Shown: positions 25,337-63,800 of the stretch, piece after piece
Position numbering within the stretch: position 1 is the stretch's first letter
How the letters are laid out: each line of letters begins with the position of its first letter
Origin: Salinivirgaceae bacterium
GTDB lineage: Bacteria; Bacteroidota; Bacteroidia; Bacteroidales; SZUA-534
Assembly: GCA_024405635.1 (NCBI GenBank)
Contig: JAKSOL010000005.1
Span: 32,001-96,000 of the forward strand
Direction of reading: 5' to 3'
Length of the DNA stretch: 64,000 bases
The notes under the pieces: model-generated
The model's input: only the letters and a program-made list of their open reading frames with translations
What the model was told of the DNA's origin: nothing
Databases searched by the model: none
Program-made: the position numbers and the translations under genes

Positions 25337-25765
25337 TTACCTTTTTAATTCATCTTTTATCTGACTTGTAGAAATCCCTTTCGTATACGGAAGATATTCG
25401 ATGGAAACCCCTAGTTCAGCAAAATCTTTTTCTGTTTTATTATAACGCTCAGTACCTTTCCAATCATCGCCAGAAAACAAAACATCAAAATGGAACATAT
25501 TTAATGCAAGCATTTTGTCATTAGTCGTATCTATATCAACCAGATAAGCGGCATCTACAACTTCAATCGCATTTAGTATTCTTTGACGCTCTTGCTCTGA
25601 AAAGACAGGCTCCTTATGCTTAATGTTACGAACATAATTATCATCACATATACCTACAATTAAAATGTCACACATGCTCTTGCATCGCTCCAAAAGGTTC
25701 AAATGTCCTATATGGAACAAATCAAAAACACCACATGTATAACCTATCTTGTATTTTTTATGCAT
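25337..25765 (-). CDS. Glycerol-3-phosphate cytidylyltransferase-like (TagD family)
   Basis: GVFDLFHIGH, GDDWKG, YTKGISTS. Confidence 0.88.
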   Translation of the reverse strand: MHKKYKIGYTCGVFDLFHIGHLNLLERCKSMCDILIVGICDDNYVRNIKHKEPVFSEQERQRILNAIEVVDAAYLVDIDTTNDKMLALNMFHFDVLFSGDDWKGTERYNKTEKDFAELGVSIEYLPYTKGISTSQIKDELKR

Positions 25766-25783: not shown

Positions 25784-27094
25784 TTAATATTCAAATTTAG
25801 ATAAAAGATTATTTAGTATAAAATTTGACACGTTTGGATAATTAATCATAATATTATCTTGAATCTCGGAAGAAATATTTGATGGCTTTTGACTTTTTTC
25901 CAAACTTTTTAAAAAGGCAATTATATCATTACGATTATACGCGAGTGTATGGTAATCTAAGGCTTTGTTCCCCAATATATCCAATTGTTTTCTAACATGT
26001 TTTCCTTTAACAACATAACAACAAGGTTTCCCTGTGTAAAGCCACTCTACCATATAAGAACCGCAATCATGTACAATAGCATCGCACTCACAAAATAAAC
26101 GAAAGTAATCTCCGCCTACCGAATATTCAATGCCCGATTTTTCTATGTTTAATAGATAATTGTCAACTTGCTTTTGTGTCCATGTTTTAGTGTTTAAAAT
26201 ATTGGTAAACAATAAAGGATGAGGACGAAAAACAAAATCCATTTTAGGGAATAAAGAGGGTAGTTCAAGTATCAAATTATAATACTCTAAGAAGTTAGAT
26301 AAATCCAAAGTTTGGTTTATTCCTTGAATTGTGTGATGAGGACTGATTAAAACTTTTAATCTATCTCGTTTTTCATTTGCCTGCTCATTATATAACGAAT
26401 CCATCTTTGCATAACCAGCCAATACTGTATTTTTGCCATGAGCCAGTTGGTATTTTTTTACTTGTTCTAGAGTATAGGTTGTATCAACATAGTATTTGAA
26501 AAATAAACTCATTTCCATGTTGCTTTCGACGTTTGTATAGTGCCATTTGGATATGGTATAACCATAATTAATATATATGGGCAACACGTTTTTAGTTGAT
26601 AAATACTGTACCCCATGAACTTCATTAACCATACTATCATACGGATTGGCAAGATAAATTATATCAAAAGAATCTGAATAATCTAAAAACTCACCTGTTT
26701 CTTCGTGCCATCCATCTAATACGACGTCTTTCCCATATTTATTTATAAAGAAAGCTTTTGTTTTATTATATTGGTCAACTAAATGTTCTACACCACGGCA
26801 TGTATCGGGAATAACAACAATTTTGCACTCATATTTATCTTTTTGAGACAACATCAAATCCATTAAACCATACGCCCCGAATGTTGAATCAAAAACCACA
26901 TAAGATGCAAATCTTAAGGGACGATCTCCGCTGGTCCTTATTCTTTCGGCAACGTCATGATAATGTCTATAAGTGTCATTTATGAGTTGACGGTGTTTTA
27001 AGGCATTATATTTACGATACATGAAAAACCGGAACGAATAATATTTGTCCAAAACAAATTTTGGACATAGTTTTTTTATAAATGATTGTAACAT
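25784..27094 (-). CDS. CDP-glycerol:glycerophosphotransferase-family protein (TagF-like)
   Basis: GYAKMD, SPHH, FRPHP, DCGSY motifs; adjacent to the TagD-like gene. Confidence 0.7.
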   Translation of the reverse strand: MLQSFIKKLCPKFVLDKYYSFRFFMYRKYNALKHRQLINDTYRHYHDVAERIRTSGDRPLRFASYVVFDSTFGAYGLMDLMLSQKDKYECKIVVIPDTCRGVEHLVDQYNKTKAFFINKYGKDVVLDGWHEETGEFLDYSDSFDIIYLANPYDSMVNEVHGVQYLSTKNVLPIYINYGYTISKWHYTNVESNMEMSLFFKYYVDTTYTLEQVKKYQLAHGKNTVLAGYAKMDSLYNEQANEKRDRLKVLISPHHTIQGINQTLDLSNFLEYYNLILELPSLFPKMDFVFRPHPLLFTNILNTKTWTQKQVDNYLLNIEKSGIEYSVGGDYFRLFCECDAIVHDCGSYMVEWLYTGKPCCYVVKGKHVRKQLDILGNKALDYHTLAYNRNDIIAFLKSLEKSQKPSNISSEIQDNIMINYPNVSNFILNNLLSKFEY

Positions 27095-27096
27095 CT

Positions 27097-28197
27097 TTAA
27101 TACTGATTTATAACTCTTACAACCTCTTTTGCTTCCTCCATGGTTAAAACAGGGCTAATAGGCAAACTTAGCTCCTGATTGTGGATTTTTTCTGTTATGG
27201 GTAACGAAATACAATCCCATTCATTATAGCACTCTTGCTTATGAGGAGGAATAGGATAATGAATTAGAGTTTGAATTTCATTCTCTTTTAAATATTGTTG
27301 AAGACTATCCCGTTGCTCACAAAAAACAGGGAACAAATGATAGACATTATTTACGTCGTTCAAACGCTCTGGCAGAGTAATTTTAGGATTGCTAATATTT
27401 TCGTAATAATACTTTGCTATCTGCTGGCGGTTGTGATTGTCATTATCTAAATATTTGAGTTTTATGTCCAAAACCGCTGCCTGAATTTCATCTAGGCGGC
27501 TATTACGACCAGAATACTTGAAAACATATTTCTTTTGAGAACCATAATTTGCCAATGCACGAATACATTCAGCAAGTTCTTGGTTGTCTGTAGTTACAGC
27601 ACCAGCATCACCCAATGCACCTAAATTTTTACCAGGGTAGAAACTATGTCCAGATGCATCTCCTAAAGAACCTGTTCGTTTATCTCCAAATTTGCAACCA
27701 TGAGCCTGAGCGTTATCTTCAATTAATTTGAGATTATGTTTTTTACAAATTTCGCCTATTCTCTCTGTGTAAGCGCAACGGCCATAAAGGTGAACTATCA
27801 TTATCGCCTTGGTTCTAGGTGTGATTCGTTCTTCAATTTTCGAATCGTCAATCTCCAATGTTTCAAAACGAGGTTCGACCAAGATTGGCTTCAAATTATT
27901 TTCTGTAATAGCCAATATTGAGGCAATATAAGTATTCGCAGGAACAATAATTTCATCACCGTCATGAAAATATCCCAACTCCTTATATGCTCTAACAATC
28001 CAAATCAATGCATCCAGCCCATTTGCACAGCCTATTGCATGTTTTGTCCCGATATATTTTGCATAGTCGGCTTCAAATTTTTTATTTTCCTCGCCTTGAA
28101 GATACCACCCACTATCAATAACACGGCTGACAGCGCTGTGTATTTCTGAAGAATATTTGCCTGTAACGTCTTTTAAACTTAGAAACGGTATTTGCAT
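27097..28197 (-). CDS. fdtB: dTDP-3-amino-3,6-dideoxyhexose aminotransferase (DegT/DnrJ family, FdtB/QdtB-like)
   Basis: [54 protein letters not shown]; clustered with fdtA/fdtC-like genes. Confidence 0.85.
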
Positions 28198-28200
28198 TTT

Positions 28201-29253
28201 TTATAATTTGATTAATGTCGGTAATTTTTGAAATATATTGGTCCTACGTTTATCCCAAGTACGATTTATAAGAATGTCTATCAGTATGGAAAACAAAAAC
28301 ATTGAAATGACTGCAATTGCAGTGTATAAGGCTGTTGTGTATATGTTGCTTGTTAAATGGTCGGCAGTAATACAATACTTTTTCCATAAGTATATCGCGA
28401 ACCCAGATGTATGAATACAAAATACAGCAAAAACAGATTTAGCCATATAATTAATAATACTGCTTTTGAAAGAAATTTTGTTGAATAAAAGGAATAGGCA
28501 AACGGCCGATGCAACGGTGAAAAATGAACAATAATTTAATAATGACGGTACTCTTTCGCAGAATAAGGCAATGGTTAAGATTGATACCAAATATGCGGGT
28601 ATAAGTTTTGAGACTTTTATTTGTACATTTTCTTTTTTTAATACCATTCCAATTGTAAGGCAATATATGAATTGAACCACATTGTATCCACCGAAATCAC
28701 CATGTATTGTAATTGCGTTTATTGATGACAAATCGGCACCGAATAAATCATGCATAATGTCAGTAATTGTTGGGTATACAATAAAAATGCTTGTGATAAT
28801 AAAAGAAAAAACAAGACATTGCTTGTGGCTCAACTTTTCTATTGCCAGATTTATATATGGAGACAATATGTATGATATAATGTAATATATGGCGAAATAA
28901 TTGTATGGAATAAATATTAATATAATACTTTGAATGGAAAAAGGCTGATTTTGTATGAAATGTGTTACCAAAAAATCCAATAGCCTGTATATGTATACAA
29001 TGAATAATAATTCTGCGACTTTGCTAAGTTTTACCTTTTTGGTTCCATATAAAAAGAATCCGGATATTATCATAAAACAATTAACAGCACATATACTTAT
29101 GCTTTCAAGAAAAAGTAGCAATGTGTAGCTTGAGTCTTGGGCATACCCCAAAGCATTACCCATTATTCTATTGTTGTAGTGCAATAGAATTACCATTAAT
29201 ATCAATATTATTCTTAACAATTCGGCGCCAGATTCTCTGTTGTTCACATTCAT
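28201..29253 (-). CDS. Acyltransferase-3 family membrane O-acyltransferase
   Basis: RESGAELLRI..VILLH, AVNCFMIISGFF, SVFAVFCIH; about 10 TMs. Confidence 0.85.
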   Translation of the reverse strand: MNVNNRESGAELLRIILILMVILLHYNNRIMGNALGYAQDSSYTLLLFLESISICAVNCFMIISGFFLYGTKKVKLSKVAELLFIVYIYRLLDFLVTHFIQNQPFSIQSIILIFIPYNYFAIYYIISYILSPYINLAIEKLSHKQCLVFSFIITSIFIVYPTITDIMHDLFGADLSSINAITIHGDFGGYNVVQFIYCLTIGMVLKKENVQIKVSKLIPAYLVSILTIALFCERVPSLLNYCSFFTVASAVCLFLLFNKISFKSSIINYMAKSVFAVFCIHTSGFAIYLWKKYCITADHLTSNIYTTALYTAIAVISMFLFSILIDILINRTWDKRRTNIFQKLPTLIKL

Positions 29254-29254
29254 T

Positions 29255-29707
29255 TCAAATCTTTCTTAAAAATTTTGCTGGATTTCCAATCCAAACTTCA
29301 CCATCTGGAACATTTTTTGTCACAACACTTCCTGCGCCAATCATTGCATTTTCGCCTATAGTAATTCCTGCAAGTATAGTTGAGTTGGCGCCTATGCTTG
29401 CTCCTTTTTTTATTGTTGTTTTTGATAAATACCAATTGGGATTTTTTGATCTGGGGAATAAGTCATTAGTAAAAGTTACATTAGGACCAACGAAAACATT
29501 ATCTTCAATAGTTACTCCATCCCAAATTTGCACGCCAGACTTTATAGTGACATTATTGCCAATGATTACATCATTTTCTATGAGAACATTGGCGCAAATG
29601 TTGCAATTGTCACCTATAATGGCATTAGGGAAAATTACACAAAACTGCCATACGTTTGAGTCCTTCCCAATATTTTTTGATTTACAATCTGATAGTTCGT
29701 GAATCAT
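29255..29707 (-). CDS. N-acetyltransferase, WxcM/QdtC-type hexapeptide
   Basis: [36 protein letters not shown]. Confidence 0.88.
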
Positions 29708-29710
29708 GAT

Positions 29711-30109
29711 TTACTTCTTCAAACTAGCCAAAAAATCATCATAGTTGCGTATGTATTCTTTTTCATCGTAGTATTTACTCGCAAGAACTACTAATTTACA
29801 TCCATAGCTAAAATCATGCATTTCTCGCCACATTCCTGGGCCTATATACAATCCTACATCAGGTCTATTCAGAAGGATAGTTTCTCTATTGACTCCATCA
29901 TCTAAAACAAACCGACAAGCACCATCCATGGCAATAATGACTTGTTCCAAATCTTTGTGCGCATGATACCCTCGACTCTCGTTAGGCAAGGTGTCAAACA
30001 TGTAATACACACGTTTTATCTCAAACGGAATGTCCTTTAAATTCTCTATGGCGACTAGCTTTCCGCGTTTGTCTCCATGTACTGGCATGTCTATTAATTT
30101 GTAATTCAT
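29711..30109 (-). CDS. fdtA: dTDP-4-keto-6-deoxyglucose 3,4-ketoisomerase (FdtA/QdtA cupin)
   Basis: GDKRGKL, PFEIKRVYY, RGYHAH, WREMHDFS, YIRNYDDF. Confidence 0.9.
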   Translation of the reverse strand: MNYKLIDMPVHGDKRGKLVAIENLKDIPFEIKRVYYMFDTLPNESRGYHAHKDLEQVIIAMDGACRFVLDDGVNRETILLNRPDVGLYIGPGMWREMHDFSYGCKLVVLASKYYDEKEYIRNYDDFLASLKK

Positions 30110-32853: not shown

Positions 32854-34395
32854 ATGTTAATAGATAAAAAATTATTGGATGAAGTTTCAAGTATAGCTAG
32901 TACTAACGAGAGATTACGAAAGAATTTTAATCTCCACGATTCGTTAGATGCGCCCTCGCAACGACTATTGAACGCATTGGAGCCTGGCACTATCATTCCC
33001 ATTCATCGGCACGAGAATACAAGTGAAACTTATGTCATTTTGCGTGGTAAAATAAGATTGACATTATATAATGATTCTGGAATAGAGACAGAATCGCATG
33101 TTTTATGCACTGAAAATGGCAACTATGGATTTAATATTTTAAGAGGTCAATGGCATTCGCTTGAAGTATTGGAGCATGGTTCAGTAATATTTGAGGTAAA
33201 AGATGGTCCATATACGCCATTGTCTGCCGACAATGTATTATCTTCTTTTGAGACAAAGAAACACATTATCCACCTATGTCTAGCCCACATGAGTGGCGAT
33301 GAGCAGAAATACATACAGCAGGCTTTTTCAGACAATTGGGTAGCTCCATTGGGGCCTAATGTCGATTTGTTTGAATCGATGCTTGAAACGTGGTATGGCA
33401 ACAATACTCATATTGCAGCATTGGCATCTGGCACGTCGGCAGTACATTTGGGATTGCTGCAATTGGGTGTGCAGCCTGGTGATGAAGTTATTTGCCAAAG
33501 TTTCACTTTCTGTGCCTCAGCCAATCCCATTACTTATTGCGGAGCTAAGCCAATTTTTGTTGATTCAGAGCCCGAAACGTGGAATATGTCGCCCGAATTG
33601 TTGGAGGAAGCAATAAAAGACCGAATTGAAAAAACTGGCCGTAAACCTAAAGCAATTATCCCTGTCCATTTGTATGGCATGCCAGCCAAGATGGATGAAA
33701 TTCAGTCTGTTGCCCAAAAATATGACATTGCTATAATGGAAGATGCTGCCGAAGCACAAGGTTCGCAATACAAAGGCAAACTTTGTGGCACATTTGGCGA
33801 GTTTGGCGCAATGAGTTTCAACGGAAACAAGATGATTTCCACTTCTGGTGGAGGTGCGTTAATCTGCAAAAGCGCAGAGGCAAAAGCAAAAACCATTTTC
33901 TATGCCACTCAAGCTCGTGAGCCACATGCCTATTATGAGCATAAAGAAATAGGCTACAACTATAGGTTAAGCAATATTTGTGCAGGCGTGGGTTGCGGAC
34001 AGATGTCAGTTTTGGACGCTCACATTGCTCATCACCGTCATGTGCACAATATGTATGTCGATTTGTTGGCAGATGTAAATGGTATCAAAGTTCATTCTAA
34101 TCCAAACGACAAGTACAATTCAAATTATTGGCTTACCACAATTTTAGTGGATTCAGCAAAATTCGGAATAGATAGTTCAGATTTGAATCTTAAGTTAAAC
34201 TCTTTAGGTATCGAATCCCGTCCACTATGGAAACCAATGCATCTTCAGCCTATATATAAAAATGCACCTGCGTATGTAAACGGTGTGAGCGAGAATTTAT
34301 TTAAACAAGGATTGTGCTTACCGTCAGGACCTTGCGTTACAGACAATGACGTGAAGTATATTGTTAGAATAATTAAAGAATCTATAATTAGATAG
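32854..34395 (+). CDS. Fusion: WbuC-family cupin + DegT/DnrJ (PglE/EpsN-like) sugar aminotransferase
   Basis: Residues ~1-130: RLRKNFNLH, QRLLNALEPGT, IHRH, WHSL, FEVKDGPY. Remainder: LCLAHMSG, SGTSAVHLGL, EDAAEA, SFNGNKMISTSGGG, GYNYRLSN, RPLWKPMH. Confidence 0.88.
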   Translation: MLIDKKLLDEVSSIASTNERLRKNFNLHDSLDAPSQRLLNALEPGTIIPIHRHENTSETYVILRGKIRLTLYNDSGIETESHVLCTENGNYGFNILRGQWHSLEVLEHGSVIFEVKDGPYTPLSADNVLSSFETKKHIIHLCLAHMSGDEQKYIQQAFSDNWVAPLGPNVDLFESMLETWYGNNTHIAALASGTSAVHLGLLQLGVQPGDEVICQSFTFCASANPITYCGAKPIFVDSEPETWNMSPELLEEAIKDRIEKTGRKPKAIIPVHLYGMPAKMDEIQSVAQKYDIAIMEDAAEAQGSQYKGKLCGTFGEFGAMSFNGNKMISTSGGGALICKSAEAKAKTIFYATQAREPHAYYEHKEIGYNYRLSNICAGVGCGQMSVLDAHIAHHRHVHNMYVDLLADVNGIKVHSNPNDKYNSNYWLTTILVDSAKFGIDSSDLNLKLNSLGIESRPLWKPMHLQPIYKNAPAYVNGVSENLFKQGLCLPSGPCVTDNDVKYIVRIIKESIIR

Positions 34396-34465: not shown

Positions 34466-34518
34466 TTAGACTCAAATTATTGTTCTTTATTTATATACAC
34501 TTCGACTCTCCCACCCAA

Positions 34519-34561
34519 CAAAAAACAAACCTCCGGCTCAACATTGTCAAGACGGAGGTTT
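34519..34561 (-). terminator. Intrinsic terminator, diverged copy of the carB terminator
   Basis: Stem AAACCTCCG / CGGAGGTTT with a T-rich tail on the minus strand; aligns with 37760-37801. Confidence 0.75.
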
Positions 34562-34586
34562 ACTGCTTTATTCTGAATTTGATTAT

Positions 34587-34741: not shown

Positions 34742-35752
34742 TCATTGTTTTTTGAGCATTCTCATTCCCCACTCGTAAACCTTGTCAATATTGGGACAAA
34801 ACAATTCTTTTTCGTGTGACAAATCGTGGATTATTTTCAAGCCGAATGGAAAGTCCTCCGTAAAATAACGGCTATCAAAGTCTGGTACATAACCACAATC
34901 GGATTCTTTCATTGGTGACGCGATTCCTTGAAATGCTTTTATAGACCTTATTTTTTTTGTCAACGAATCGGCATCTTTACTTTCGTAATAATTTAATATT
35001 GTAGGTATTGCTCCTTCACGTACTCCAAGTTTATCAAGCAAATGTTGAAATTCGCCATCCATTGCAATTAGCAATTCTGATGAATCAACCGTCCAATCTG
35101 AATAAAATTGAGGCACATTTTCATACGCATAGCCTTCTTTATAATCGTTAAACATTGAATATAAACGACTTGTGTGAAGCAATGGATTGCTATTGGTAAG
35201 GCTTACCTCGTAATGACTCTCAAGCAAACCGACTGGGCATTTGAACAACGACTCTATCAATGCTCTTATCTCTTCCTTCTTGTTGGTTTGCTCCACTGCA
35301 ATAGCCAGCGAGGCTTTGTATCCTAACAAATCGGCCGAATGTCCATACTCTGTTATACGGCTAATGAATGGCACTCGTTGGAACCCAAACAAAGGTTGTG
35401 TGCTTGGCAATAATTCAAAAGCCCGAAAAAAGAATCCTGTGCTTGATACTATTGTTCCTACTATTGTATTTTTTTCTAAATATGGTCGTATTTTTTGGAG
35501 TTCTTCGGCAATTGAATAACCTGGTAAACATATTAAAACAACATCTGCGCCACAAATTGCTTTAGCTGGGTCTGCCGTTATTTCATTCAATTTACCTTTA
35601 TATTGTTTGCCATTAGGGTCATTCACTTCTATATCAGTTGACCACAAGTGTGGCTTGCGTGTAAACATTCGAATAGTAATATCCTCACGCGAGGCAAGAA
35701 CTCCTGCACAAACATGCCCCAAGTGCCCTCCACCGCATATTGTAATAACCAT
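34742..35752 (-). CDS. NAD/NADP octopine/nopaline (opine) dehydrogenase family protein
   Basis: Rossmann ICGGGHLGH; NSNPLLH; FYSDW; SRYFTEDFPFGL. Confidence 0.85.
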   Translation of the reverse strand: MVITICGGGHLGHVCAGVLASREDITIRMFTRKPHLWSTDIEVNDPNGKQYKGKLNEITADPAKAICGADVVLICLPGYSIAEELQKIRPYLEKNTIVGTIVSSTGFFFRAFELLPSTQPLFGFQRVPFISRITEYGHSADLLGYKASLAIAVEQTNKKEEIRALIESLFKCPVGLLESHYEVSLTNSNPLLHTSRLYSMFNDYKEGYAYENVPQFYSDWTVDSSELLIAMDGEFQHLLDKLGVREGAIPTILNYYESKDADSLTKKIRSIKAFQGIASPMKESDCGYVPDFDSRYFTEDFPFGLKIIHDLSHEKELFCPNIDKVYEWGMRMLKKQ

Positions 35753-35754
35753 AT

Positions 35755-37569
35755 CTACAACAACATTAAAGCATCAACCAAGGCATCGTTATCTTTTGTA
35801 TTTCGCACAGCAATACGAATCATATTTTTACCCTTAAGGCCATTTTTTGTATCGCAGTCCTTAATAAGGATATTGAACTTATTGAGTAAAATTTCAGTAA
35901 GTTCATGCGAAGTGTATTTTGCTTTATCAACCTCGCACATCAAGAAATTGGCTTGACTTGGTATTACTCGCAGATAAGGTACTGATTTCAATTTTTCGAC
36001 AAAACGTGCACGTTCTACGATAAATTTTTCACAGGCTTTTCGGTAGTCTTTTTCGTATTTGTTAAATATCTGCATATAAAACTCGGCAAACGAGTTTATG
36101 TTCCAAATAGCAACATCTTTTTTTATGTAATTGACTAATTCTGTGTTGCTTGTCGCTAATATTCCCAAACGCAAACCTGGCACTCCGTAACTTTTGCTGA
36201 TGCTTTTAACCACCACCATATTTGGATGTGATGCTAAAATATCGTTGGTTAACATTGTGTTGCTTTCCCAATTGTCGCTAAAGTCAACAAAACTTTCGTC
36301 AAGAATCAATGTTATGTTTTGTTTTTTACACCATTGGGCAAGGTTGAGCACATCGGCAACAGGAATGAAATTACCAGACGGATTATCTGGGTTAATCAAC
36401 AGCAATTGTTCTATTTTTTTGTCAGCATAATACTGCATCAAATCGTTTGCAGTATAACTATAGTTGGCATTTTGCGGAACAAACTGAACTATATCTTCAG
36501 TTTTTTTGCGATGCGGATATTCTTCAAAAGTTGGATATACTACGCCTATTTTACCAGACTCACGTTCCATCAAACTTTTGATGAGTTCGGCAGCACCATT
36601 ACCTGCTACTACATATTCTTGTTTAATGTTGAAATATTTGCCAGCTAACAAACTATTTACAAACATTCCCGAAGGATACTCAGTAAGTAGTCGGCCAAAG
36701 TTTGCTTGAAGTTCGTTGCGCATTTTTTGCGGTGGGAAATATGGATTTACCAGATAGCAGAAATCCAACATGTTTTCGAAACGCCAATAGCCTCCATAGC
36801 GTTTCATATACTTGCTCAGTTTGTCTTTTTCTTCAGCAAATATTGTTTCGGCAATATCTTTATCTTGAACATCATCAATTTCGTACCAAGGAAGATTCCC
36901 AACTGGTTTTGCTTTAAGTTCGGCATTGTTTATAAGTGTAATAACCCGCAAAACTTGTTCATAGTATTCATTGTTGCCCAAGGCCTTAACATAAGCATCG
37001 AGGAATGGCACGTAGCTGTTTGTTGCAAATTCTTTTGAGAATTTGTAAATGTTTACTGTTTTGTAATAATGGTCGGTATCTTCGTACTTAAATGCTTGTT
37101 TAGGCACAAAGTTCACAATGTTGTGGTCTTGATCGATGCACACCATTGTTCCATCCATCCAAGTTTCGTATTTGGCAACCAGTGCAAGATTTGGGAATGA
37201 ATCGTCGAGTATTAGCCTAAACATTTTGCTATCAACTATCAAGTCTGATTCAAGAAGAATGGTATCGTCTTCCATCATTTTTTCCTTTACCAGCCCCAAT
37301 GAGTATATGTTATTGGTTTTGTCGTAAATAGGGTTGTTAGCCCACTCAATTTTTAATTTATCATCAAAGCGATGGCCAACATAATCTATCACGTTTTGGC
37401 CTTTGTACCCAACCACTATAATCACTCTGCTTAAATTTAATTCGGCAAGTTGATTAAGCATACGGTCAATCAAGCGTACTCCGTTAACTGGAAGCATGCA
37501 TTTGGTGTTGTCTTTGGTATATTCGCCTAGTCGGCGTCCCATACCTGCAGCTAATATTATTGCTTGCAT
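35755..37569 (-). CDS. Fusion: LicC-like nucleotidyltransferase + class I/II PLP enzyme (CobD/HisC fold)
   Basis: N-terminal ILAAGMGRRL..TKC, TNNIYSL, ESD, WYEIDD; C-terminal INPDNPSG, LDESFVDF, KSISKSYGVPGLRLG, IRIAV. Confidence 0.88.
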   Translation of the reverse strand: MQAIILAAGMGRRLGEYTKDNTKCMLPVNGVRLIDRMLNQLAELNLSRVIIVVGYKGQNVIDYVGHRFDDKLKIEWANNPIYDKTNNIYSLGLVKEKMMEDDTILLESDLIVDSKMFRLILDDSFPNLALVAKYETWMDGTMVCIDQDHNIVNFVPKQAFKYEDTDHYYKTVNIYKFSKEFATNSYVPFLDAYVKALGNNEYYEQVLRVITLINNAELKAKPVGNLPWYEIDDVQDKDIAETIFAEEKDKLSKYMKRYGGYWRFENMLDFCYLVNPYFPPQKMRNELQANFGRLLTEYPSGMFVNSLLAGKYFNIKQEYVVAGNGAAELIKSLMERESGKIGVVYPTFEEYPHRKKTEDIVQFVPQNANYSYTANDLMQYYADKKIEQLLLINPDNPSGNFIPVADVLNLAQWCKKQNITLILDESFVDFSDNWESNTMLTNDILASHPNMVVVKSISKSYGVPGLRLGILATSNTELVNYIKKDVAIWNINSFAEFYMQIFNKYEKDYRKACEKFIVERARFVEKLKSVPYLRVIPSQANFLMCEVDKAKYTSHELTEILLNKFNILIKDCDTKNGLKGKNMIRIAVRNTKDNDALVDALMLL

Positions 37570-37759
37570 ATATTATATTATTAATCTCAAGAATGAATGT
37601 ATCAAAAACTTCAAGCCACCAAATTACTGCATTTTATTTTTATGCTTTACAAATCCACTAACTAAAGTATCTTGCTGTATTTGTTTTCCATTGTCAACAA
37701 TTATAATCTACATTGAGGTTATTAAATAGCAATGGTTGTGCGTTTTAAAACATATAAAA

Positions 37760-37801
37760 CAAACAAAAAACCACCGGCTCAGCACTAGCAAGGCGGTGGT
37801 T
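37760..37801 (-). terminator. carAB intrinsic terminator
   Basis: Stem AAACCACCG / CGGTGGTTT with a T-rich tail on the minus strand. Confidence 0.8.
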
Positions 37802-37826
37802 TGTTATTTCAATATGGAGTTAAATT

Positions 37827-54881: not shown

Positions 54882-57800
54882 TTACAATTTCACAATCTTT
54901 TGATTCATAACAACATTGCTGCTTGTGTATTGCAAAATATACAGTCCACGAGGTAGATTGCTTATGTCGATTACGCTTGTTGAACCTACAACACTACCCA
55001 GTTTAACCACTTGCCCTGTTTGCGCAAAGATTGCATAATTTCCATCGGCAAGGGACTGGTTAACCTCAATGGTGAATTTGCCGTTTGTTGGGTTGGGCTC
55101 AATGGTCAAATGAGGTTCATCGTTTTGAGCCACAAACTTCACGCAAATGGTTTTACCGGCGTAAGTTGATTGGCCATCGAAATCAACTTGACGCAAGCGG
55201 TAGTACTGATAACCAAACTCTGGATTGTTATCGGTGAACGAGTAATTGATGCGGTTGTTTGATGTGTTTGCGCCATTCACCACGCCTATCAAGGTAAAGT
55301 TCTCGCCATCGGTTGATCGTTCAATTTCAAAACGATTGTTGTTCAATTCGCTCAAAGTGGTCCACGAAACCTCAACAGCATTGCCGTTTTGCTTTGCATC
55401 AAAGTTTACAAGGGTAATTGGCAACGGATTTACCAAACTTGACGAAGCCAAAGCTACAGGGCTATACGAGCTAAACGGAACGGTGCATGTTACTTTGCCG
55501 CCACTGCCATTGCTTGAAGCACTGCCGCCCATATCGTCCCATGATGAGGTTGAGCTATTGTAGTGAGCAACAACCATTGCGCTTGCGTCGTTTATTTGGC
55601 TGGTTGCGTTGTCGTCCCAATATAGACTGATGTAGCTGCTTACACTTGGCGACGAGTTGCAAACAACATCCCAATTATCGATTTGACTAACAGCTAACAA
55701 CGATTCGGCTTTATTTTCAATTTCTTCGCCATCGGGATCATCATTAAATGAGTATCCAACGGTAAACGACCCAACTGAAACTGGATTTACGCCAATCATG
55801 CCGCGGTGGCCATTGTTGCCAATTGGGAACACAAACTCGGTGCCTGCCGCAATATTGTTTTTACGAATTTGTCCGTTAACATAAGCATTAACGGCTGCGC
55901 TAGTTGCTGTGGCTGTGGCGTTTAGAGTAATTAAATTACCGTTTGTTTCAACCTCACCACTAACAAGCGCAAGTGCGCCATTTATGTTCAAATTGGTTTG
56001 CAGCGATGCTCCGTTTGCATTATCAATGGTCAAATTGTTTAGGTTAAAATCGCCGCTGCCGGACAATGTAATTGCAGCACTACCTTGCAATGTTAATGTG
56101 CTTGTTTCGCCGTTTATGGTGCCGTTGTTTTCAATGTTGCCATTAACGGTTAACGCATTGGCGCCAAGACTAAGAGATGCTCCGCTTGCTACGGCAAGGT
56201 TAAAAAACGATGCATCCGACTCAACATTACTTGCGCCATTGAACGATACGGTTGAAGCGTTGCTTGTAAATGTTGCTGCATCGTTGCATTTCCAATCGCC
56301 ATAAACATCAAGTTGGTTGTTGTTTTCAATAGTTAAACCGCCCGACTCTATTTTAACCGATTTAACCTCTGCTGCACTTTTAATAGTTGGTTGGTTGGTA
56401 ACATCGCGAATAATAGCATCGGTTGTGCGCGATGGAACTGCATTGCTAAACCAGTTGCCAGTTTTGCTCCAATCGTTGTCAATGGCACCGCTCCACACGT
56501 AACCTTCGAGCATAGTTTGTGCAAACTGATAATCGGTTGAGCAACCATTGTTGGCTGTAATGGTTACATAACCTTCAACATTGCTGCCAGTTGCTGTCAT
56601 TACTATGTTGCCAAGCGCAGTGCTAGCTACGTTTGTACCGCCATCGGTATAGTTTATGCTGTAATGAGTTGGCATCACTGCAGAATTAACAGTGAATGGC
56701 ACGTCGGTTGGTGCGCCCAAATACAAATCGGGCCAAGTAATGGTAACATTTGGCGACTCTTTAACCGTAAGCGTTTTGTAGCCGCTTGCTGGAATGCGCA
56801 TCTCGCAACCTTGGTTACTTGCAGTAATGTACAGATTAACATTGCCATAGCTGGTCATTTTTACCGTTGTAAAATCAATTGCTGCACCAGTTCCCGACAA
56901 GGTATTACCAACATTCACGTCGTCTTGGTTAAATAGTTTGTAGGTTGTATTTTGCTCAGAGCCCGTTATTGTAACCACGCCTTGATTTCCCTCGCAAACG
57001 GCATCTATATCGGCAATTGTTTGGCTAACTGGACTTGCATACACGTACACCGTTTTTTCTTTATTGCCCGACAGGCGCGAATCGCTCTCCACAACGTTTA
57101 TTGTGTGGCTACCAGCTGCATAGTTGCTCCAATTGATGGTTACAGAACTTGATGTACCAACCTGTGCGCCATCGACATACCATTTGTATGTATGGCCTGC
57201 AACTTGCGATGTTTGGTAAGCAATTACATCGGTTTGGCAAATGTTAACCTCGGCAGTAAACGAAGGTTGAGGGTTTGCAAACATTGTAATTTCGTGAGTT
57301 ACCGAAATAGCACAACCCGTTGATGCCGTTTCTGTAACCTTAAGAACATACAAAGTTCCATCCGCGCTGCCTGTTGTCGGATATTTTACCGTTACCGAGT
57401 TGTTGTTTGGAGTGGTTGTTTGCGGAGCAGTTCCCACCCAGCTCCACGAGTATGTGCTACCTGCGTGATTTTCAACCACGTAAGTTCTGACGTCGTTAAA
57501 TCCGGCAACATCAGAAGCATCAACAAAAACAGGCTCGTAAGCGGCAAGCACATCGATGGTACCTGCTGCTAGTTTTACAACACCGTCAGTCGAGGCATCT
57601 TTTACACTAACCAACTCAATGTTGTAAGTTCCAGCAACCCCACCCAATTGTGCACTGTTGCGAGTAATGGTATAGGTTGAAGCGTTGATGTTTGATTGAG
57701 TAAACTCGCTGCTACCAATTTTGTACTTTAAGGTGAATGGTGCGGTTCCGTACAACGCCACATCGATATTGGCAGTTTGTGTGCCGTCGTTGCATATTGT

Positions 57801-60800
57801 TTGAGTGGCAACGGTTGTTATTTCGGCAATAACGCCACTAAAACCAAAGGTGAAGTAATAGTTGTCGGCAGTTACTGCATTGTTTGTTGTAATGGTGCCC
57901 GAAGTTAGCGAGCCGCTGGCAGTTGCTTGGCACACGTTCCAAATTGAAGCGCCATCGAACTCAACCACATTAAGTCGTTGTTTAAGCAGTGTTAAGTTGG
58001 TAAACATTGGGCACGACTGACTGTCCCAACGCAAACCCACTTTGGCATTGCTTGCGGCATCGGGACGCTTAACAATCCAGTACTCGTTGTCGCTTATTTC
58101 GGTAAGTGTAGCGTCAATGTTGGCGCAAACGTTGGTTGGGTCTTCGTTTTTGTATTCGGCAGTCCAGTATTTTGCCGATGCGCCATTGTTGTTTACGTTG
58201 CTGAGTGTAATGTAACCCAAACGCGAGCCGTTGCCCACAGGGAATTTAAATGTTCCACTATTGCTGATGTTTTTGCGCAAAGGACCATCGACAAACGAAG
58301 TTGCGCTGCCGCCATTTACTGCCGATGCGCTTGTGTTTGATATGCTTATGAGCGAATTGCTGGCAGTGTAGAGCACTCCATTGGTTAAATAAAGAGTGTT
58401 GGCAACAATCAAGTTATTGTTTGATGTTCCATTGTTGGTTACGTCAACGCCAGCAGGGTTGTTTATCTGCAAATTATAGAATTGAGCATCGGTGCGCACA
58501 TCGATTAGTTGCAAATTGGTGCCAACAAAACGCACAATGCTTGTTCCGCAAATGTAGCCGGAGTTTGTAGTGTTAAGGTCGGTAAAGTTGCCGCCCACGT
58601 AAAAGTCGCGATTTGAAACCGAGTTGTCGATGTGGCAACCGTTTTCAATGGTTACATTACCTTTTGCATAGAACTGCGCAGTGGTAATGTTTTTGGTTCC
58701 GTTGCCTTTAAACACCACATTTTGGAACGGATTGTAGTAGTTGCCCGGTTTAGCAGGCAGTGTGGCGGTGTGTTCGCCATAAAACTCAATGGTGCTTGAT
58801 GCGTTGTTGTAAAATTCAGCATACTCGCCGGCAGGAACTTTAAACGAGTACATGCCGCTTCCGTTGTCAATTTCGCCCACGCTCAAAGTACCACCGCCGC
58901 GAACAATACCCAAGTTATGACCAACGGTGGTGCCCACATCAAGTTTACCGCCCTCGTCAATTGTTACGCTATATGCGCAATTTGGCGACGAACCATCCAT
59001 TGTTATGGTATGTCCGTTTTGAATTATCACCGGGTTGCCGCTTGGTGCGTATTGTGCTGATTGCCAGTTGCCACCTGCATCAACATATTGCCACGAATTT
59101 TTATCGTTCCAGTTGCCCGATGTTTTACTGTAATAAGTAGGCAATTGCGAGTAAGCAGGGAATCCGCAAGTAAAATCGCCATTCAAGTTATCGATGCCCG
59201 AAATGGTGAAGGTATTGGCATCGGCATCAATGCTTGTTTCGTCGGGATAGTGATGCCATTGCGATTCGGCAAAACGTTGACCAATCATAAGCGATTCGCT
59301 ACCGCCGTCGGTCAATAGGTTGTCGGTGTAGGTAAAATCGATGTTGGCCGAAATGTTGTCTAATCCGCTGGTTGTCACCATCCAGTAATAATTCAAGCAG
59401 TTGATTGGTTCGGTGGCTGGCGATATTGATGTGTGCCTATAGTTTATCGGTTTAATATTAACATAACCATTGTTGCTTGTTAGCGACGAGAATGTGTAGG
59501 TTACTGGTGTATAGTTGTCGGCAATGCCTATACAGAATTTAAAACTTCCGGTAAATCCGTTGTCGAAATACTTTATAACGCCCGCATCGCCAATGGCACC
59601 ATTTAGTACAATCATAGCCACGCTTGCATCGTTTATAGTAGCTGTTTTGGTTAAATACAATTGATAATCGTTGGCATACAAATTTTCGCTCAAAGTAAGT
59701 TCGCCGGTTATCTCAATAGCATTGGTCATTTCGGTATAGTTGCCAATTCTGACATTTCCGAACGATGCCACGCTGTTGCCGCTGCTTAACATTGATGCCG
59801 ACGACGACACAAATTGTGTTGAACCTGAACCTTCAAAAGCAAGGTATCCTCCCGCAGCTGAACTTATGTGTTTACCGTCGTTTACAACATTCGATTTGGC
59901 TACTATTTTGTTGCCCGCATCGTCAACTGTACCTCTATTAATGGTGAGTGTGTTTTCGGCGGTGATGGCAACATTGTCTAACTGAACTTTTGAAGGGTTA
60001 TCAAAAGTTAGTTTGTTGAACTTAAGTTTTGGAACTGTTGTTGAGCTTGCACCTATGCCAATAATTTTTTGCAAACCAGTTCCGTCAAATGTAGTGGTTT
60101 GGTTTCCGGTTGATGTGTAATAGTAGCCGTTGGCGTTGTAGGTTACAAAATCGCCAGCAATGTTTAGGTTGTTGCTGTTTACATAAACTTTTGAGTTTCG
60201 GTTTATAGTAAGCGAGCCATTCATGTCGATTGCACTGGTTACAAATTGCAAGGTTTGAGCTTTGCTCTCGGTACCAACCGTAACATTAAAAATTTCGGTT
60301 CCAGCATTCATGTAGTAGGTTTGGTCCGATGCGCACTCTGCATCGTTGCTACCAATTGCAATTGTACCACCTGTGGCGCTCGATGTTGCGCAACTTAGTT
60401 CAATGTCGGCAATGCTTGCGTCGTTTAGTCCGCCACCAAGTATGGTTATTTGACCGCCCGATATGTTAAAGTTACCGTTGTTGCACACCTCAAAAAGAGC
60501 GCGGTGGTTTGTTTGTCCGTTGTCGCGTTTGTTACCAAATATCTTAACCTCGCCACCACTTTGCTTGTATGTTAAATCGCCCAAAGCAACAGCATAGCTA
60601 CGACGAATTTGACCTAACACGTTCAACACGCCACCTCTAATATCAATGGTTGGGTGACCACTGCTATACTCAATGTCGGTTGCACCGGTGGCGGTTCCCA
60701 CTGTAAGTTCGCCGCCATAAACCTTTATTGTGCCATTAAGGTTTAATGTGAGATTGGTTGCGGTGCTATTGCACACATTTACTTTACCGCGGTTAACCCA

Positions 60801-63800
60801 CAGGCAAGCCGACGATTTAACTTCAAAGTTTGCGTTTTCGGTAATGTTCAAATCAACATCATCGGCATCAATTTGGAATGTTCCATTGCGCAAATCGAGA
60901 AAAGCTCCGTCTACTTGAGTTACTGCAATATTTTTCTGCAACGACAACACTGCTGTGGTATCGGTGCCTTTGTCGCAAATAAGATTATACAAACTTATTG
61001 TTCCTGTACCTTTTATTGTGTCGTTGCGAGTACCTGTAAAGGTTGTTACAACGCCGCCGCCTGTATTAAACGCAATTGCGCCATTGCAAACCATGTTGCC
61101 ATACAGGGTAAAGTTGTGTCTGCGGCTGTTTCCGTTACGCAAGTTTGCTCCTGCACTTACGTTTACATTACCCTCAACCACAACGTTTTGTGCACTATTT
61201 GCGTTGTTATACTCCAACGTACCAGTCGCAACATTTAAATCGCCTTTAATTGTTACGGTTCTTGTGCTTATCTGGTTGTTGAATTTGTTAGTAGCCGTAC
61301 CATTGTTTTGCGATGTTAAGTTGCCATAAACGGTAATATCTACATTGGGCAAAGTGGTTGAGCGATTGTTTGTTGCCGACAAAATCAGGTTGTTGTAGGT
61401 TGTAACACTGGCACTTGGGGTAATGTTGTTTGCTGATGCGTAATACTCAACTGTACCACCGCCAGCTCGCAAAAAAGTTCCAAAGTCGCCATTGGGGAAG
61501 TAGTTGTTGCTGCTTATTCGCAAAGTTCCATTACCACCAACAGCGCCATCGGGCAAGAAACCAAAGTTATGACCTTGGGTTGTTCCCAAATCGAGCATTG
61601 ACCCGTTTGCAATGTTCAAACTGCCGCAGTTTACATTGCCGCGACTAATTGTAATGGTGTGGTTGTGGGTTTGGTCGCCAATAAACACAACTGTGCGCGC
61701 TCCCGGAGTGCCTGCACCACCGGCCCCACCAACCTCAACGCTCGACCACGAATTTGCATCGGACCAATCGCCCGGAGTGCTTGAACTGTACAATTTTTCG
61801 GGAGCTCGCGTCATTACAGAAACCGAGCCTGCGGTAAAATCGCCATTAATCACTGGGCAACTTTCCCAACGGAAGTTGTTGTTGTTTTCGTCAACCAACG
61901 ATGTGTTGGTGTTTGGCACCCATTGGTCAACATAATAATATGCGGGAATGTAGCTTGATTCGGCTGTAGCATTATTCACAAAATCGTTTGAATTGTAGTA
62001 ATAGTAATGGTTTACCGATGTTACGCCCTCAAAACCAGCACTTGAGTTGCTCCAATAACATTTAAGTGCATTGTCGGTGTTGTTAAGCACATAGTGCAAA
62101 CTGTTTACAGGCCTACTGGTTACCGAACCGTATGCAGTTGGTTCAACATCAAACTGAATTTCGGCTGGCAAATAGTAGTTGCCAAATCCGTATGGGAAAA
62201 CAAACTTGTTGGTGTTGCTAAACATTTTTGTGATACCGCCATCGGATTGGTTGCCGTCAGTGGTTATCATTTTTCGGTTGCTGAATGCTTTTCCTGCCGA
62301 TTCGTTTGAATAAATATCGGCATCGGCATCGTTAAGATTTAGGTTGTAGCTGCCAATGTTGAGAATTGTATTGCTCAACAACCGCAAGCAGCCAGTTACT
62401 TCAACATTAGAAGCTAATGCAACCGAGCCTCCGCTTTTGTTTATATGAAGGTTGTTAAACGATCCGTTTCCGCTAATGGTTTGCACATTGCCACCATTTA
62501 ATATAATACTACCAGCGGTTGAGTTTGAATTGTAGTGTACTCCGTTGTTTTCAACATTGCCCGAAACGGTAAGAGTTTTTGCATTGTCGGCCAAAGTTGC
62601 ATTTTGTTCAATTGATAGTTGATTGCGAACTACAATGTTGCTTTGTAAACGTAGATATGCGCCATTGGCAACGGTTAAATTGTTAAGGTTGTTATTTATT
62701 GTGCCGTTGTTGCTAAATAACTGAACGTTGCCATTGCCGTTAAAAATTGTAGTGTTGTTGCCTGGTGTGTATGTGCAGCCGTTGTTTATAATAAAGTTTC
62801 CGCCCACATACACATTTTGGTTATTTGCGTTTAAACGGCCACCATTTTGCAAAGTTAAATTATTAAGCACCACAAGAGGCTGAATATCAACAGCCTCCGA
62901 GCCATATCCTTGTTCATACCTCACAATTTGGGTTCCTTCGGTTCCGCTTGTTCCCTCAATAACTAAATCCCAAAACGGAGCAGTACTATTAATGTTTGCA
63001 TTGTATGATTGTCCCCACCAATTTTCGGCAAACACTTTAACCGTACCACCAGTAATATTACAATTCGAAGGGTCGGCACCAATCACAATTGCTCTTCCTG
63101 AACCTTGAGCGTTTCCACTGGTTCCTCTGTGAACTTCTAGAGTTCCTCCGCTCATGTTGAAACTCATGCCCGAATAAGTCATTGAGAAAGTTGGGTGGGA
63201 GTTTTGTACGGCGTCGTTTCCTGTTACTTTCATTGTTCCGCCCGAAATGGTGAGCGAACCGCGGTGAGTACCGTCGGCCACTGATGTTCTGAAGATTGGT
63301 GTTTCAATGTAGCCATCTTGCAACTCAACAGCACCCGACCAACGCATAATAAAACCATGTTGGTTGGTTAAATACACCTTACTGTTTGAGTTTGTAACTT
63401 TAAGTTTACCATAAATGACTAACGAGTTAGCATATCCACCATTTTCTCGTTGGGTTGTTGTAACTGTAGCACCATCAACCCAAAGGCAGGCATTTGCGTC
63501 AATCACATAGTTAAAATCGCTGCTGGCATCTCTTTCCTCAACCATTGACGGCAAAATTATGTTTGCACCTAGTCTAAGTGTACCTTTCATAAGACCTAGT
63601 GCATAGTAATTGTTTACGCCATTGGTATAGTTGGTATAGTCCGATTTCATGCCTGTGTTGTAACCAAAAAGCTTAAAGTTATTGGTATTGCTAGCATCAA
63701 CATTCAAAATGTATGTTTGGTCAATACCTTTGTTTATCTCAATTCGGTAGAAACGAGTTTCGCCGTTCAGCACTACATTCTGGTCTTTTGTACCATCGAC

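Follow-up and report, generated by a model that had tools for sequence, protein, structure and literature searches.

The 64,000-nucleotide stretch of DNA analysed here (hereafter the window; contig JAKSOL010000005.1, positions 32,001 to 96,000, of the Salinivirgaceae bacterium assembly GCA_024405635.1) contains two adjacent genes that are the subject of this work: P0001, which encodes a fusion of a LicC/PntC-like nucleotidyltransferase with a CobD-like pyridoxal phosphate (PLP)-dependent enzyme (hereafter NTP-PLP), and P0002, which encodes an opine dehydrogenase (ODH) (Table 1). The stop codon of P0001 is separated by 2 bases (35753-35754) from the ATG of P0002, and the arrangement given in the preliminary description of this DNA, a LicC-like/PLP fusion followed 2 bp later by an ODH, is borne out by the open reading frames (ORFs), their translations and the Pfam matches. 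The pair, which is present in a single copy in the genome, adjoins a glycan locus at approximately 13.6-34.4 kb that encodes GT2 and GT4 glycosyltransferases, Wzx-type and Wzy-type proteins, Bac_transf and DegT (Pfam). Hairpins with U-runs lie at both ends of the pair, one downstream of carB (-17.8 kcal/mol, z -3.89) and the other past the P0002 stop (-19.3 kcal/mol, z -4.44), each equalled by 0 of 200 shuffles. Because these hairpins bound both ends, P0001 and P0002 are predicted to form a separate two-gene transcription unit that is convergent with the glycan locus; thus, the adjacency to a glycan locus noted in the preliminary description holds, but the locus converges on the pair, which appears to be transcribed on its own. 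Co-transcription with carAB was ruled out by the terminator hairpin after carB. A generic promoter and terminator scan, which yielded 11 promoter-like sites against 13.6 expected, missed both hairpins.

Table 1. Location of the two-gene unit, its domains and boundaries, and related features in the window, in the same genome and in relatives (locations without a contig or locus name are window positions)
Feature	Location	Strand	Description	Basis
P0001	35755-37569	minus	604 aa, LicC/PntC-like nucleotidyltransferase + CobD-like PLP fusion (NTP-PLP)	ORF list, translation, Pfam
P0002	34742-35752	minus	336 aa, opine dehydrogenase (ODH)	ORF list, translation, Pfam
Nucleotidyltransferase domain of P0001	36820-37569	minus	residues 1 to ~250; predicted CTP:amino-alcohol-phosphate cytidylyltransferase	
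PLP domain of P0001	35755-36792	minus	residues ~260-604 plus stop codon; CobD-like, predicted phosphoserine decarboxylase	
Hairpin + U-run 3' of carB	37762-37806	minus	upstream boundary of the two-gene unit	sequence reading, folding
Hairpin + U-run ~180 nt past the P0002 stop	34515-34562	minus	predicted terminator	sequence reading, folding
TagD-like cytidylyltransferase	25337-25765	minus	in the neighbouring glycan locus	CTP_transf_like, E 9.9e-18
TagF-like CDP-alcohol phosphotransferase	25784-27094	minus	436 aa, in the neighbouring glycan locus	homology to the TagF-like protein of contig C2
Second surface-polymer cluster	contig C2, L083:2211-10589		GT2, YfhO-like membrane protein, flippase, TagF-like, cytidylyltransferase-GFO/IDH/MocA fusion, LicD	
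OCD loci (L098, L100, L102, L114, L116, L141, L154, L161, L164, L090, L107, L134)	e.g. L100:3117-4082 (strand given for L100)	minus	OCD/mu-crystallin gene after NTP-PLP	

The N-terminal domain of P0001 matches the Pfam families NTP_transf_3 (residues 3-91, E 1.7e-10) and NTP_transferase (E 9.5e-06). Among solved structures, the closest to the N-terminal 250 residues are pneumococcal LicC (1jyk, E 9.3e-12) and PntC of Treponema denticola (6pd1, E 1e-08), with the sugar-1-phosphate nucleotidyltransferases trailing from E 1.5e-05; a family profile built from 43 diverse relatives gives 101.2 bits for PntC and 98.4 bits for LicC, the next nucleotidyltransferase in the Protein Data Bank (PDB) scoring 66.6 bits. 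Judged by these scores, the domain is nearest to LicC and PntC, not to the sugar-1-phosphate nucleotidyltransferases. Both LicC and PntC use cytidine triphosphate (CTP) to activate 2-aminoethyl phosph(on)ates, and cytidylyltransferases of this kind carry the signature GXG(T/S)RX4-8PK (PMC6697681). The corresponding region of P0001, G9-M-G-R-R...T-K23, retains the glycines, the arginine and the lysine, with R in place of T/S and T in place of P, and G9, G11, R13 and K23 are conserved in at least 90% of the 43 relatives.

The C-terminal part of P0001 matches Aminotran_1_2 (residues 289-601, E 3.2e-31), as a class I/II PLP enzyme of fold type I, and includes the motifs DESFVDF (residues 424-430) and GVPGLRLG (residues 462-469); Lys459 aligns with the PLP lysine K216 of Salmonella enterica CobD (1lc5) and is conserved in at least 90% of the 43 relatives. 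The best NCBIfam match is to CobD (TIGR01140, 183.9 bits), ahead of hisC (149.1 bits), both under the curated cut-offs (290.55 bits for the TIGR01140 equivalog). A single-sequence PDB search with this domain gives 158 bits for 6oux, 103.7 for 1lc5 and 92.5 for the HisC entry 8bj1, and the family profile gives 270.6 bits for 6oux, 217.6 for 3ftb, 184.3 for 1lc5, 163.9 for 3fkd and 159.1 for 8bj1. The entry 6oux is designated a 'threonine phosphate decarboxylase-like enzyme' and 3fkd a threonine-phosphate (Thr-P) decarboxylase, whereas 3ftb and 8bj1 are labelled HisC; three of the four best profile matches are thus named as threonine-phosphate decarboxylases or decarboxylase-like, with 6oux more than 50 bits ahead. 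The earlier impression, gained from the motifs, that the domain is closer to CobD than to HisC therefore holds by score. Given that CobD is the highest-scoring family but the score falls below the cut-off, the domain is to be regarded as a relative of CobD, not a certified member, and its nearest relatives appear to be amino-acid-O-phosphate decarboxylases. A housekeeping HisC role for P0001 was rejected because a separate hisC-like gene, 28% identical, resides on contig C34.

Two characterized enzymes bear on the substrate of this domain. SMUL_1544, which is linked to 6oux by name only, we take to be a serine-phosphate (Ser-P) decarboxylase of norcobamide synthesis, and presumably this protein, as that of 6oux, accepts both Ser-P and Thr-P. 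The link is that SMUL_1544 of Sulfurospirillum is annotated with exactly the molecule name that 6oux bears (PMC7755780). The second enzyme, Cj1436, is a Ser-P decarboxylase that yields ethanolamine phosphate for the capsule, and Cj1437, encoded in the same capsule locus, makes serinol phosphate from dihydroxyacetone phosphate and glutamate (PMC12409886). The family is large: when the PLP domain was searched against 1.84 billion representative proteins, it retrieved 484 cluster representatives at E 1e-30 or better, and the best 150 matches are mostly proteins of about 600 aa that are matched over residues ~255-600, i.e. of the NTP-PLP architecture (assigned by length and match position, with Pfam run on nine). 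Among named proteins, the one most similar to P0001 comes from Parabacteroides distasonis; it is 76% identical and occurs on hundreds of contigs.

P0002 matches the Pfam family Octopine_DH (PF02317) over residues 178-332 with 102.9 bits (cut-off 30) and the families ApbA and NAD_Gly3P_dh_N over residues 3-101, where a glycine-rich Rossmann loop, CGGGHLGH, occupies residues 6-13. The protein aligns end to end with octopine dehydrogenase of Pecten (3iqd/3c7a, E 2e-33). In this alignment, H193, R295 and D300 of P0002, which are invariant across 25 relatives, correspond to His212, Arg324 and Asp329, which we take to be the catalytic residues of the Pecten enzyme. P0002 is predicted to reductively join a 2-keto acid to the amino group of an amino-alcohol phosphate. 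Four basic residues, R126, K146, R196 and K267, are also invariant in the relatives of P0002, and the octopine dehydrogenase positions that match R126 and R196 are visibly not basic; speculatively, these four residues are candidates for binding a phosphorylated amine or one linked to cytidine diphosphate (CDP).

The genomic linkage of the two genes was examined from both sides. From the ODH side, contigs representing one genome per species were searched with an ODH alignment, and the best 80 loci of 381 relatives were retained (sample 1); these come mostly from Prevotellaceae and other Bacteroidales of the rumen and gut, with two from Fibrobacter, and the cultured carriers include Alloprevotella rava DSM 22548, Xylanibacter ruminicola KHT3 (two copies), X. 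rarus 109 and Prevotella sp. tf2-5. An NTP-PLP gene adjoins the ODH gene in 74 of these 80 loci: in 70 of them it lies immediately upstream in the same orientation, in two it is upstream at a distance of at least 200 bp, and in two it is convergent. In this classification, L078, with its over-extended ORF start, was reassigned by visual inspection. LicD is encoded within 2.5 kb of ODH in 61 of the 80 loci, and in 12 of those ODH and LicD form a single polypeptide, as exemplified by L009 (Pfam LicD 1.9e-42, Octopine_DH 1.1e-35). The same fusion appears in a protein atlas as a 597-aa cluster, all 71 members of which carry Octopine_DH and LicD. Three of the 19 sample-1 loci lacking LicD have a TagF-like gene within 2.5 kb, and TagF-like genes directly follow ODH in L052, L075, L150 and L153. 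The co-occurrence of ODH, NTP-PLP and LicD, which the preliminary description had named as its own test, is thus evident from the 74 and 61 of 80 loci and from the fusions, and lends strong support to the logic of the pathway proposed there. No kinase, including threonine kinase, and no permease was found among the conserved sample-1 neighbours or the window ORFs scanned. The cassette adjoins the methionyl-tRNA synthetase gene (metG) in 33 of the loci L001-L080 (e.g. L079:5968-8142), and this position is a conserved chromosomal site outside glycan operons. In L012, a gene of the PD-(D/E)XK nuclease family sits between the NTP-PLP and ODH genes (L012:9373-9744).

From the NTP-PLP side, metagenome contigs were searched with the P. 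distasonis homologue, and 80 loci of 565 relatives were kept (sample 2). ODH is encoded directly downstream in 35 of these loci, fused into an NTP-PLP-ODH triple fusion in five (verified by Pfam on L104) and nearby in two; 26 loci lack ODH although they extend at least 1.2 kb downstream, and 12 are too short to judge. The place of ODH is not always empty in the remaining loci. A gene of the ornithine cyclodeaminase (OCD)/mu-crystallin family (Pfam E 2e-15 to 1.4e-29) directly follows NTP-PLP in 12 sample-2 loci, comprising 10 of the 26 without ODH and two of the 12 short ones (Table 1), and is convergent, on the opposite strand, in five of the 12. The exchange can be followed in closely related DNA: L098 and L099 are 97.9% identical over LicD and NTP-PLP, after which L098 carries OCD and L099 a fused ODH, and L100 and L104 differ by a clean swap of about 1.1 kb beyond which homology resumes. 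L155 carries both enzymes, with an OCD/mu-crystallin frame that is split into two ORFs between NTP-PLP and ODH (L155:9814-11695), and is possibly a decaying intermediate of such a swap. In a quick maximum-likelihood tree of NTP-PLP, the label (ODH, OCD or none) changes at least 10 times, and the presence or absence of any reductase at least four times; the 50 labelled rows of this tree (25 ODH, 10 OCD and 15 with neither) were thinned by hand and cover 24 of the 40 ODH-bearing loci and 25 of the 26 without ODH. The OCD/mu-crystallin family, which is unrelated to that of ODH, counts among its members the opine (tauropine and strombine) dehydrogenases of sponges and also an enzyme for the alkylamination of alpha-keto acids (PMC8446579). 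The substitution of OCD/mu-crystallin for ODH suggests that non-homologous imine-reducing enzymes have replaced one another. That unrelated families with the same chemistry interchange at one position is the strongest argument for identifying the step in question as reductive N-alkylation of an amine.

Other relatives of P0001 vary the theme further. In the P. distasonis-like contig L086, the order of genes is LicD, GT4, NTP-PLP and TagF-like (Glyphos_transf, 9.8e-51), with no reductase between the latter two, and LicD was detected in 19 of the 26 sample-2 loci without ODH, which include the 10 with OCD. The core appears to consist of NTP-PLP and a transferase, which are more widespread, with ODH or another reductase as an optional tailoring module. 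Among the longer proteins retrieved with the PLP domain, and according to Pfam, P0256 and P0258 (842 and 854 aa) are fusions of NTP-PLP with an S-adenosylmethionine (SAM)-dependent methyltransferase domain, and P0257 (873 aa) carries a TagF-like domain N-terminal to the PLP domain. Choline phosphate is made by stepwise N-methylation of ethanolamine phosphate, and the methyltransferase-fused NTP-PLP proteins may make phosphocholine de novo. The fusions with TagF and LicD point to a CDP-alcohol donor, and the methyltransferase and TagF fusions together fit a free amino group that undergoes tailoring, and a CDP-alcohol as the donor.

On balance, we slightly favour the view that the two genes are a self-contained cassette that turns central metabolites into a CDP-activated, N-carboxyalkylated amino-alcohol phosphate destined for a surface glycan. 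The CobD-like PLP domain would decarboxylate O-phospho-L-serine, a central metabolite, to ethanolamine phosphate, which the LicC/PntC-like domain would convert, with CTP, to CDP-ethanolamine; ODH would join a 2-keto acid (pyruvate being the simplest case) to the free amine by condensation and reduce the resulting imine with NAD(P)H, the product in the case of pyruvate being an N-(1-carboxyethyl)ethanolamine phosphate head group; and a phosphotransferase of the LicD or TagF type would move the phospho-alcohol onto the glycan. This scheme, which largely coincides with the pathway proposed in the preliminary description, builds on what the sequences show: which families the domains belong to, that the catalytic residues are conserved, and how tightly the genes are linked and, across the relatives, fused in combinations that involve all four activities. 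Ethanolamine phosphate and pyruvate as the substrates, the ODH step and its order relative to the activation by CTP, the target glycan and the transferase employed in this genome are predictions. As to the order, near-identical NTP-PLP proteins are combined with different reductases, and close relatives with none, so that the cytidylyltransferase probably sees the untailored amine. ODH would then probably act on CDP-ethanolamine or on the already transferred group, and the ODH-LicD fusions fit either substrate. A phosphodiester, a secondary amine and a carboxylate add up to a predicted net negative charge, and the earlier characterization of the group as zwitterionic thus does not stand in the sense of a neutral zwitterion.

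The pair seems to be mobile. The ODH protein of the closest relative locus, L001, is 99% identical to P0002, and the two loci share 93.6% DNA identity over 34750-37600 of the window, i.e. both genes and about 30 bp upstream, and otherwise a single 95-bp match; in L001, the pair lies in a different glycan operon, with LicD 4 bp upstream. Given that only the two-gene unit is common to both, it apparently moves as a cassette, and its position beside the glycan locus of the window need not be functional. At the start of the L001 glycan operon, along with a second LicD, there is a gene for a thiamine-pyrophosphate enzyme (L001:84-1250), possibly a phosphonopyruvate decarboxylase, and this locus may add two different head groups. 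ODH homologues with at least 49% identity were found in 4 of 300 sampled genomes of the same order, in a sample that was spread evenly over families and carries little information on Prevotellaceae, the source of most matches. An independent DNA sample contains the whole stretch of the pair within a single 4135-nt contig that shows 15 differences, and short contigs with at least 99% identity in both genes came from two metatranscriptome libraries of separate studies, for which carry-over of DNA is possible. Contigs from two other sequencing runs (X19 record 2 and X6 record 10) match up to the P0001 stop (window position 35757) and continue into unlike sequence, which indicates that some strains carry a different gene after NTP-PLP.

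The search for a partner transferase led away from the immediate vicinity of the pair. No LicD or TagF-like gene was found within 7 kb by Pfam analysis of the window and a LicD search of the genome, and the single LicD gene of the genome is located on contig C2, the window being on C32, in agreement with the earlier statement that the window contains no LicD. The genome encodes three CDP-alcohol phosphotransferases, LicD and two TagF-like proteins. In the C2 cluster (Table 1), LicD and one TagF-like gene accompany a single cytidylyltransferase (a fusion of CTP_transf_like with a GFO/IDH/MocA oxidoreductase), and in the window cluster a TagD-like cytidylyltransferase and P0001 accompany the other TagF-like gene. 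The product of the latter has no Pfam match at E 0.001 and scores 16.3 bits with PF04464; it shares 28% identity (E 2e-31) with the Glyphos_transf protein of C2 and seems to be a divergent CDP-alcohol phosphotransferase, a possible alternative transferase for the cassette product. Since the two clusters examined contain three enzymes for activation and three for transfer, the C2 LicD becomes the first candidate partner of the cassette, followed by either of the two TagF-like enzymes.

An alternative activated compound, 2-aminoethylphosphonate (AEP), was rejected for this genome because no true phosphoenolpyruvate (PEP) mutase was found. A search with PF13714 yielded one match above the cut-off (34.1 bits) and a second below it (16.9 bits); the former, as read from its sequence, resembles PanB (ketopantoate hydroxymethyltransferase) and lacks the motif EDKXXXXXNS that marks PEP mutases (PMC6697681).

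Several observations weigh against the favoured reading, and they bear on three alternatives. The cytidylyltransferase signature is only partly kept (GMGRR...TK), and the PLP domain falls well short of the CobD cut-off (183.9 versus 290.55 bits) with a good hisC score (149.1 bits); decarboxylation and transamination are inseparable at the level of sequence, and the second-best PDB match is a HisC-labelled entry. The architecture could accordingly be the same and the amine different, the PLP domain being a transaminase that makes serinol phosphate or a phosphothreonine decarboxylase that makes aminopropanol phosphate. The closeness of the CobD and HisC families leaves room for this, as does the precedent of serinol phosphate synthesis by Cj1437 in the very capsule locus that encodes Cj1436 (PMC12409886). 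We nevertheless regard a different amine as rather unlikely: decarboxylases or decarboxylase-like proteins predominate among the best profile matches, with 6oux far in the lead, no threonine kinase is among the conserved neighbours, and the methyltransferase fusions best suit the route from ethanolamine phosphate to choline phosphate.

Doubts of another kind attach to ODH and to the missing transferase. Ser104 of P0002 takes the place of Gln118 of octopine dehydrogenase, presumably a pyruvate-binding residue; six of the 80 sample-1 ODH loci (one of them at a contig edge) have no adjacent NTP-PLP gene; and 16 of the 80 sample-2 loci have neither ODH nor OCD, so that ODH is dispensable for the core pathway. 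ODH could act elsewhere, alkylating an amino sugar, as the preliminary description had considered, or an amino acid substituent of the alanopine or carboxyethyl-lysine type, or it could be a plain carbonyl reductase like those of other CDP-alcohol pathways; amide-linked alanopine and N-epsilon-carboxyethyl-lysine do occur in Providencia O-antigens (PMC10609480). This alternative is nonetheless improbable, being disfavoured by the covalent fusions of ODH to NTP-PLP (5 loci) and LicD (12 loci), the adjacency in 74 of 80 loci, the repeated replacement of ODH by OCD/mu-crystallin at the same position, the conservation of the catalytic His, Arg and Asp of opine-forming enzymes, and the frequent location of the cassette beside metG or LicD alone, outside glycan loci with amino-sugar genes. 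Also, no transferase gene lies beside the pair, and the lone LicD belongs to a cluster on another contig that has its own cytidylyltransferase, which raises the possibility of a recently acquired orphan that yields no surface decoration and, at most, a soluble CDP-linked compound. The limited extent of similarity to L001 and the patchy distribution of the ODH family in the order are compatible with an orphan. We consider this, too, to be quite unlikely, since both ORFs are intact, 2 bp apart and placed between terminators, the same arrangement recurs in the independent DNA sample, with metatranscriptome contigs in addition (subject to the carry-over mentioned above), and the genome has three CDP-alcohol phosphotransferases and, besides P0001, one CDP-alcohol-type cytidylyltransferase in each examined cluster; with three transferases for two other cytidylyltransferases, one transferase could serve the cassette. 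Finally, a literature search found no Bacteroidales glycan structure with an N-carboxyalkyl amino-alcohol phosphate, and we know of none.

Three other features of the window deserve mention. Genes for an FdtA-like isomerase, a hexapeptide acetyltransferase, an Acyl_transf_3 membrane acyltransferase and a DegT aminotransferase are grouped at 27097-30109 (minus strand), as is usual where a dTDP-3-acetamido-3,6-dideoxyhexose is made. The glycan operon on the plus strand, which converges on the cassette, ends with a gene (32854-34395) whose 513-aa product fuses a WbuC-type cupin (DUF6016) to a LegC/DegT-family aminotransferase. A giant ORF of more than 3031 aa (54882-63998, minus strand) runs past the window end.

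Phosphocholine and phosphoethanolamine decorations affect how hosts and phages perceive bacterial surfaces, and the prevailing view is that they require either imported choline (the Lic pathway) or transfer from phospholipid in the periplasm. The cassette would provide a cytoplasmic, precursor-independent route to CDP-amino-alcohols. It would also, for the first time, assign genes to opine-type (N-carboxyalkyl) phospho-amino-alcohol substituents, whose chemistry in Proteus was established decades ago, and would offer a clean example of two unrelated imine-reducing families interchanging at one pathway position. The literature search retrieved no paper on the genetics of carboxyethyl-ethanolamine phosphate and no paper naming LicD together with opine or octopine dehydrogenase, and the genes for such a decoration do not seem to have been described.

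A broader generalization, to which we give somewhat less than an even chance, is that the cassette exemplifies a widespread modular head-group toolkit of gut and rumen Bacteroidales, and also of Fibrobacter, with ODH look-alikes in Bacillota and Pseudomonadota. CDP-ethanolamine would then be made from phosphoserine with no imported precursor, and its amine rewritten, before or after transfer by an enzyme of the LicD or TagF type, by swappable ODH, OCD or methyltransferase modules, to give opine-type acidic head groups or phosphocholine made de novo. Opine chemistry would be a recurrent, horizontally shuffled way to vary the charge and antigenicity of glycans, and the same genes would account for the carboxyethyl-ethanolamine phosphate of Proteus O-antigens. 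Since the genera that carry it are abundant in the gut and rumen, the family may be relevant to immune recognition, phage receptors and serotype diversity.

One of the closest known systems is the Lic pathway of Streptococcus pneumoniae and Haemophilus, in which the LicA kinase, the LicC cytidylyltransferase and the LicD transferase bring about decoration with phosphocholine. Like the Lic genes, the cassette includes a LicC-type cytidylyltransferase, with LicD beside or fused to it in relatives, and is predicted to pass a CDP-amino-alcohol as phospho-alcohol to a glycan. Unlike them, it has no kinase or transporter of the LicA/LicB type, the fused CobD-like PLP domain taking the supply role, and it adds ODH; furthermore, in this genome LicD is not at the locus. 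New relative to Lic-type CDP-alcohol decoration are, accordingly, the supply module, the tailoring step and the interchangeability of the tailoring enzymes. The closest precedent for the fusion itself is the PntC-AEP transaminase Tde1415 of T. denticola (6PD1/6PD2), which also joins a LicC-like cytidylyltransferase to a PLP enzyme and has LicD-like genes nearby, but its partner is a class V AEP transaminase and the phosphonate comes from PEP mutase (PMC6697681), whereas P0001 carries a class I/II CobD-like domain in a genome with no true PEP mutase. Among solved relatives of the PLP domain, CobD, SMUL_1544 and Cj1436 come closest, and they share its PLP lysine; P0001 differs from them in scoring below the CobD cut-off, in its fusion to a nucleotidyltransferase and in the lack of a cobamide context.

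On the reductase side, P0002 resembles Pecten octopine dehydrogenase over its full length, including the catalytic triad of His, Arg and Asp, but unlike the animal opine dehydrogenases (of alanopine, strombine and tauropine) it is bacterial, is linked or fused to glycan-decoration enzymes and has a phosphorylated or CDP-linked amine as its predicted substrate. Tauropine synthesis uses taurine, a 2-aminoethyl acid shaped like ethanolamine phosphate. The tauropine dehydrogenase of a sponge is among the enzymes cited in PMC8446579. A different combination of genes with similar roles is the pneumococcal wchX-gtp1-gtp2-gtp3 set, in which a reductase, a cytidylyltransferase and a third enzyme are encoded next to a phospho-alcohol transferase in a capsule locus (PMC1391919, PMC5581491). 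This CDP-2-glycerol pathway, likened to the cassette by gene roles, yields glycerol-2-phosphate and involves no amine. On the chemical side, the main text of the Proteus O-antigen cluster survey does not mention carboxyethyl-ethanolamine phosphate or such genes (PMC5560731). The substituent itself, given in the preliminary description as occurring in some Proteus O-antigens, is on record, N-[(R)-1-carboxyethyl]ethanolamine phosphate being listed as a component of Proteus mirabilis O-polysaccharides (PMC9630907), and it is exactly the head group predicted for the cassette, given ethanolamine phosphate as the amine and pyruvate as the keto acid.

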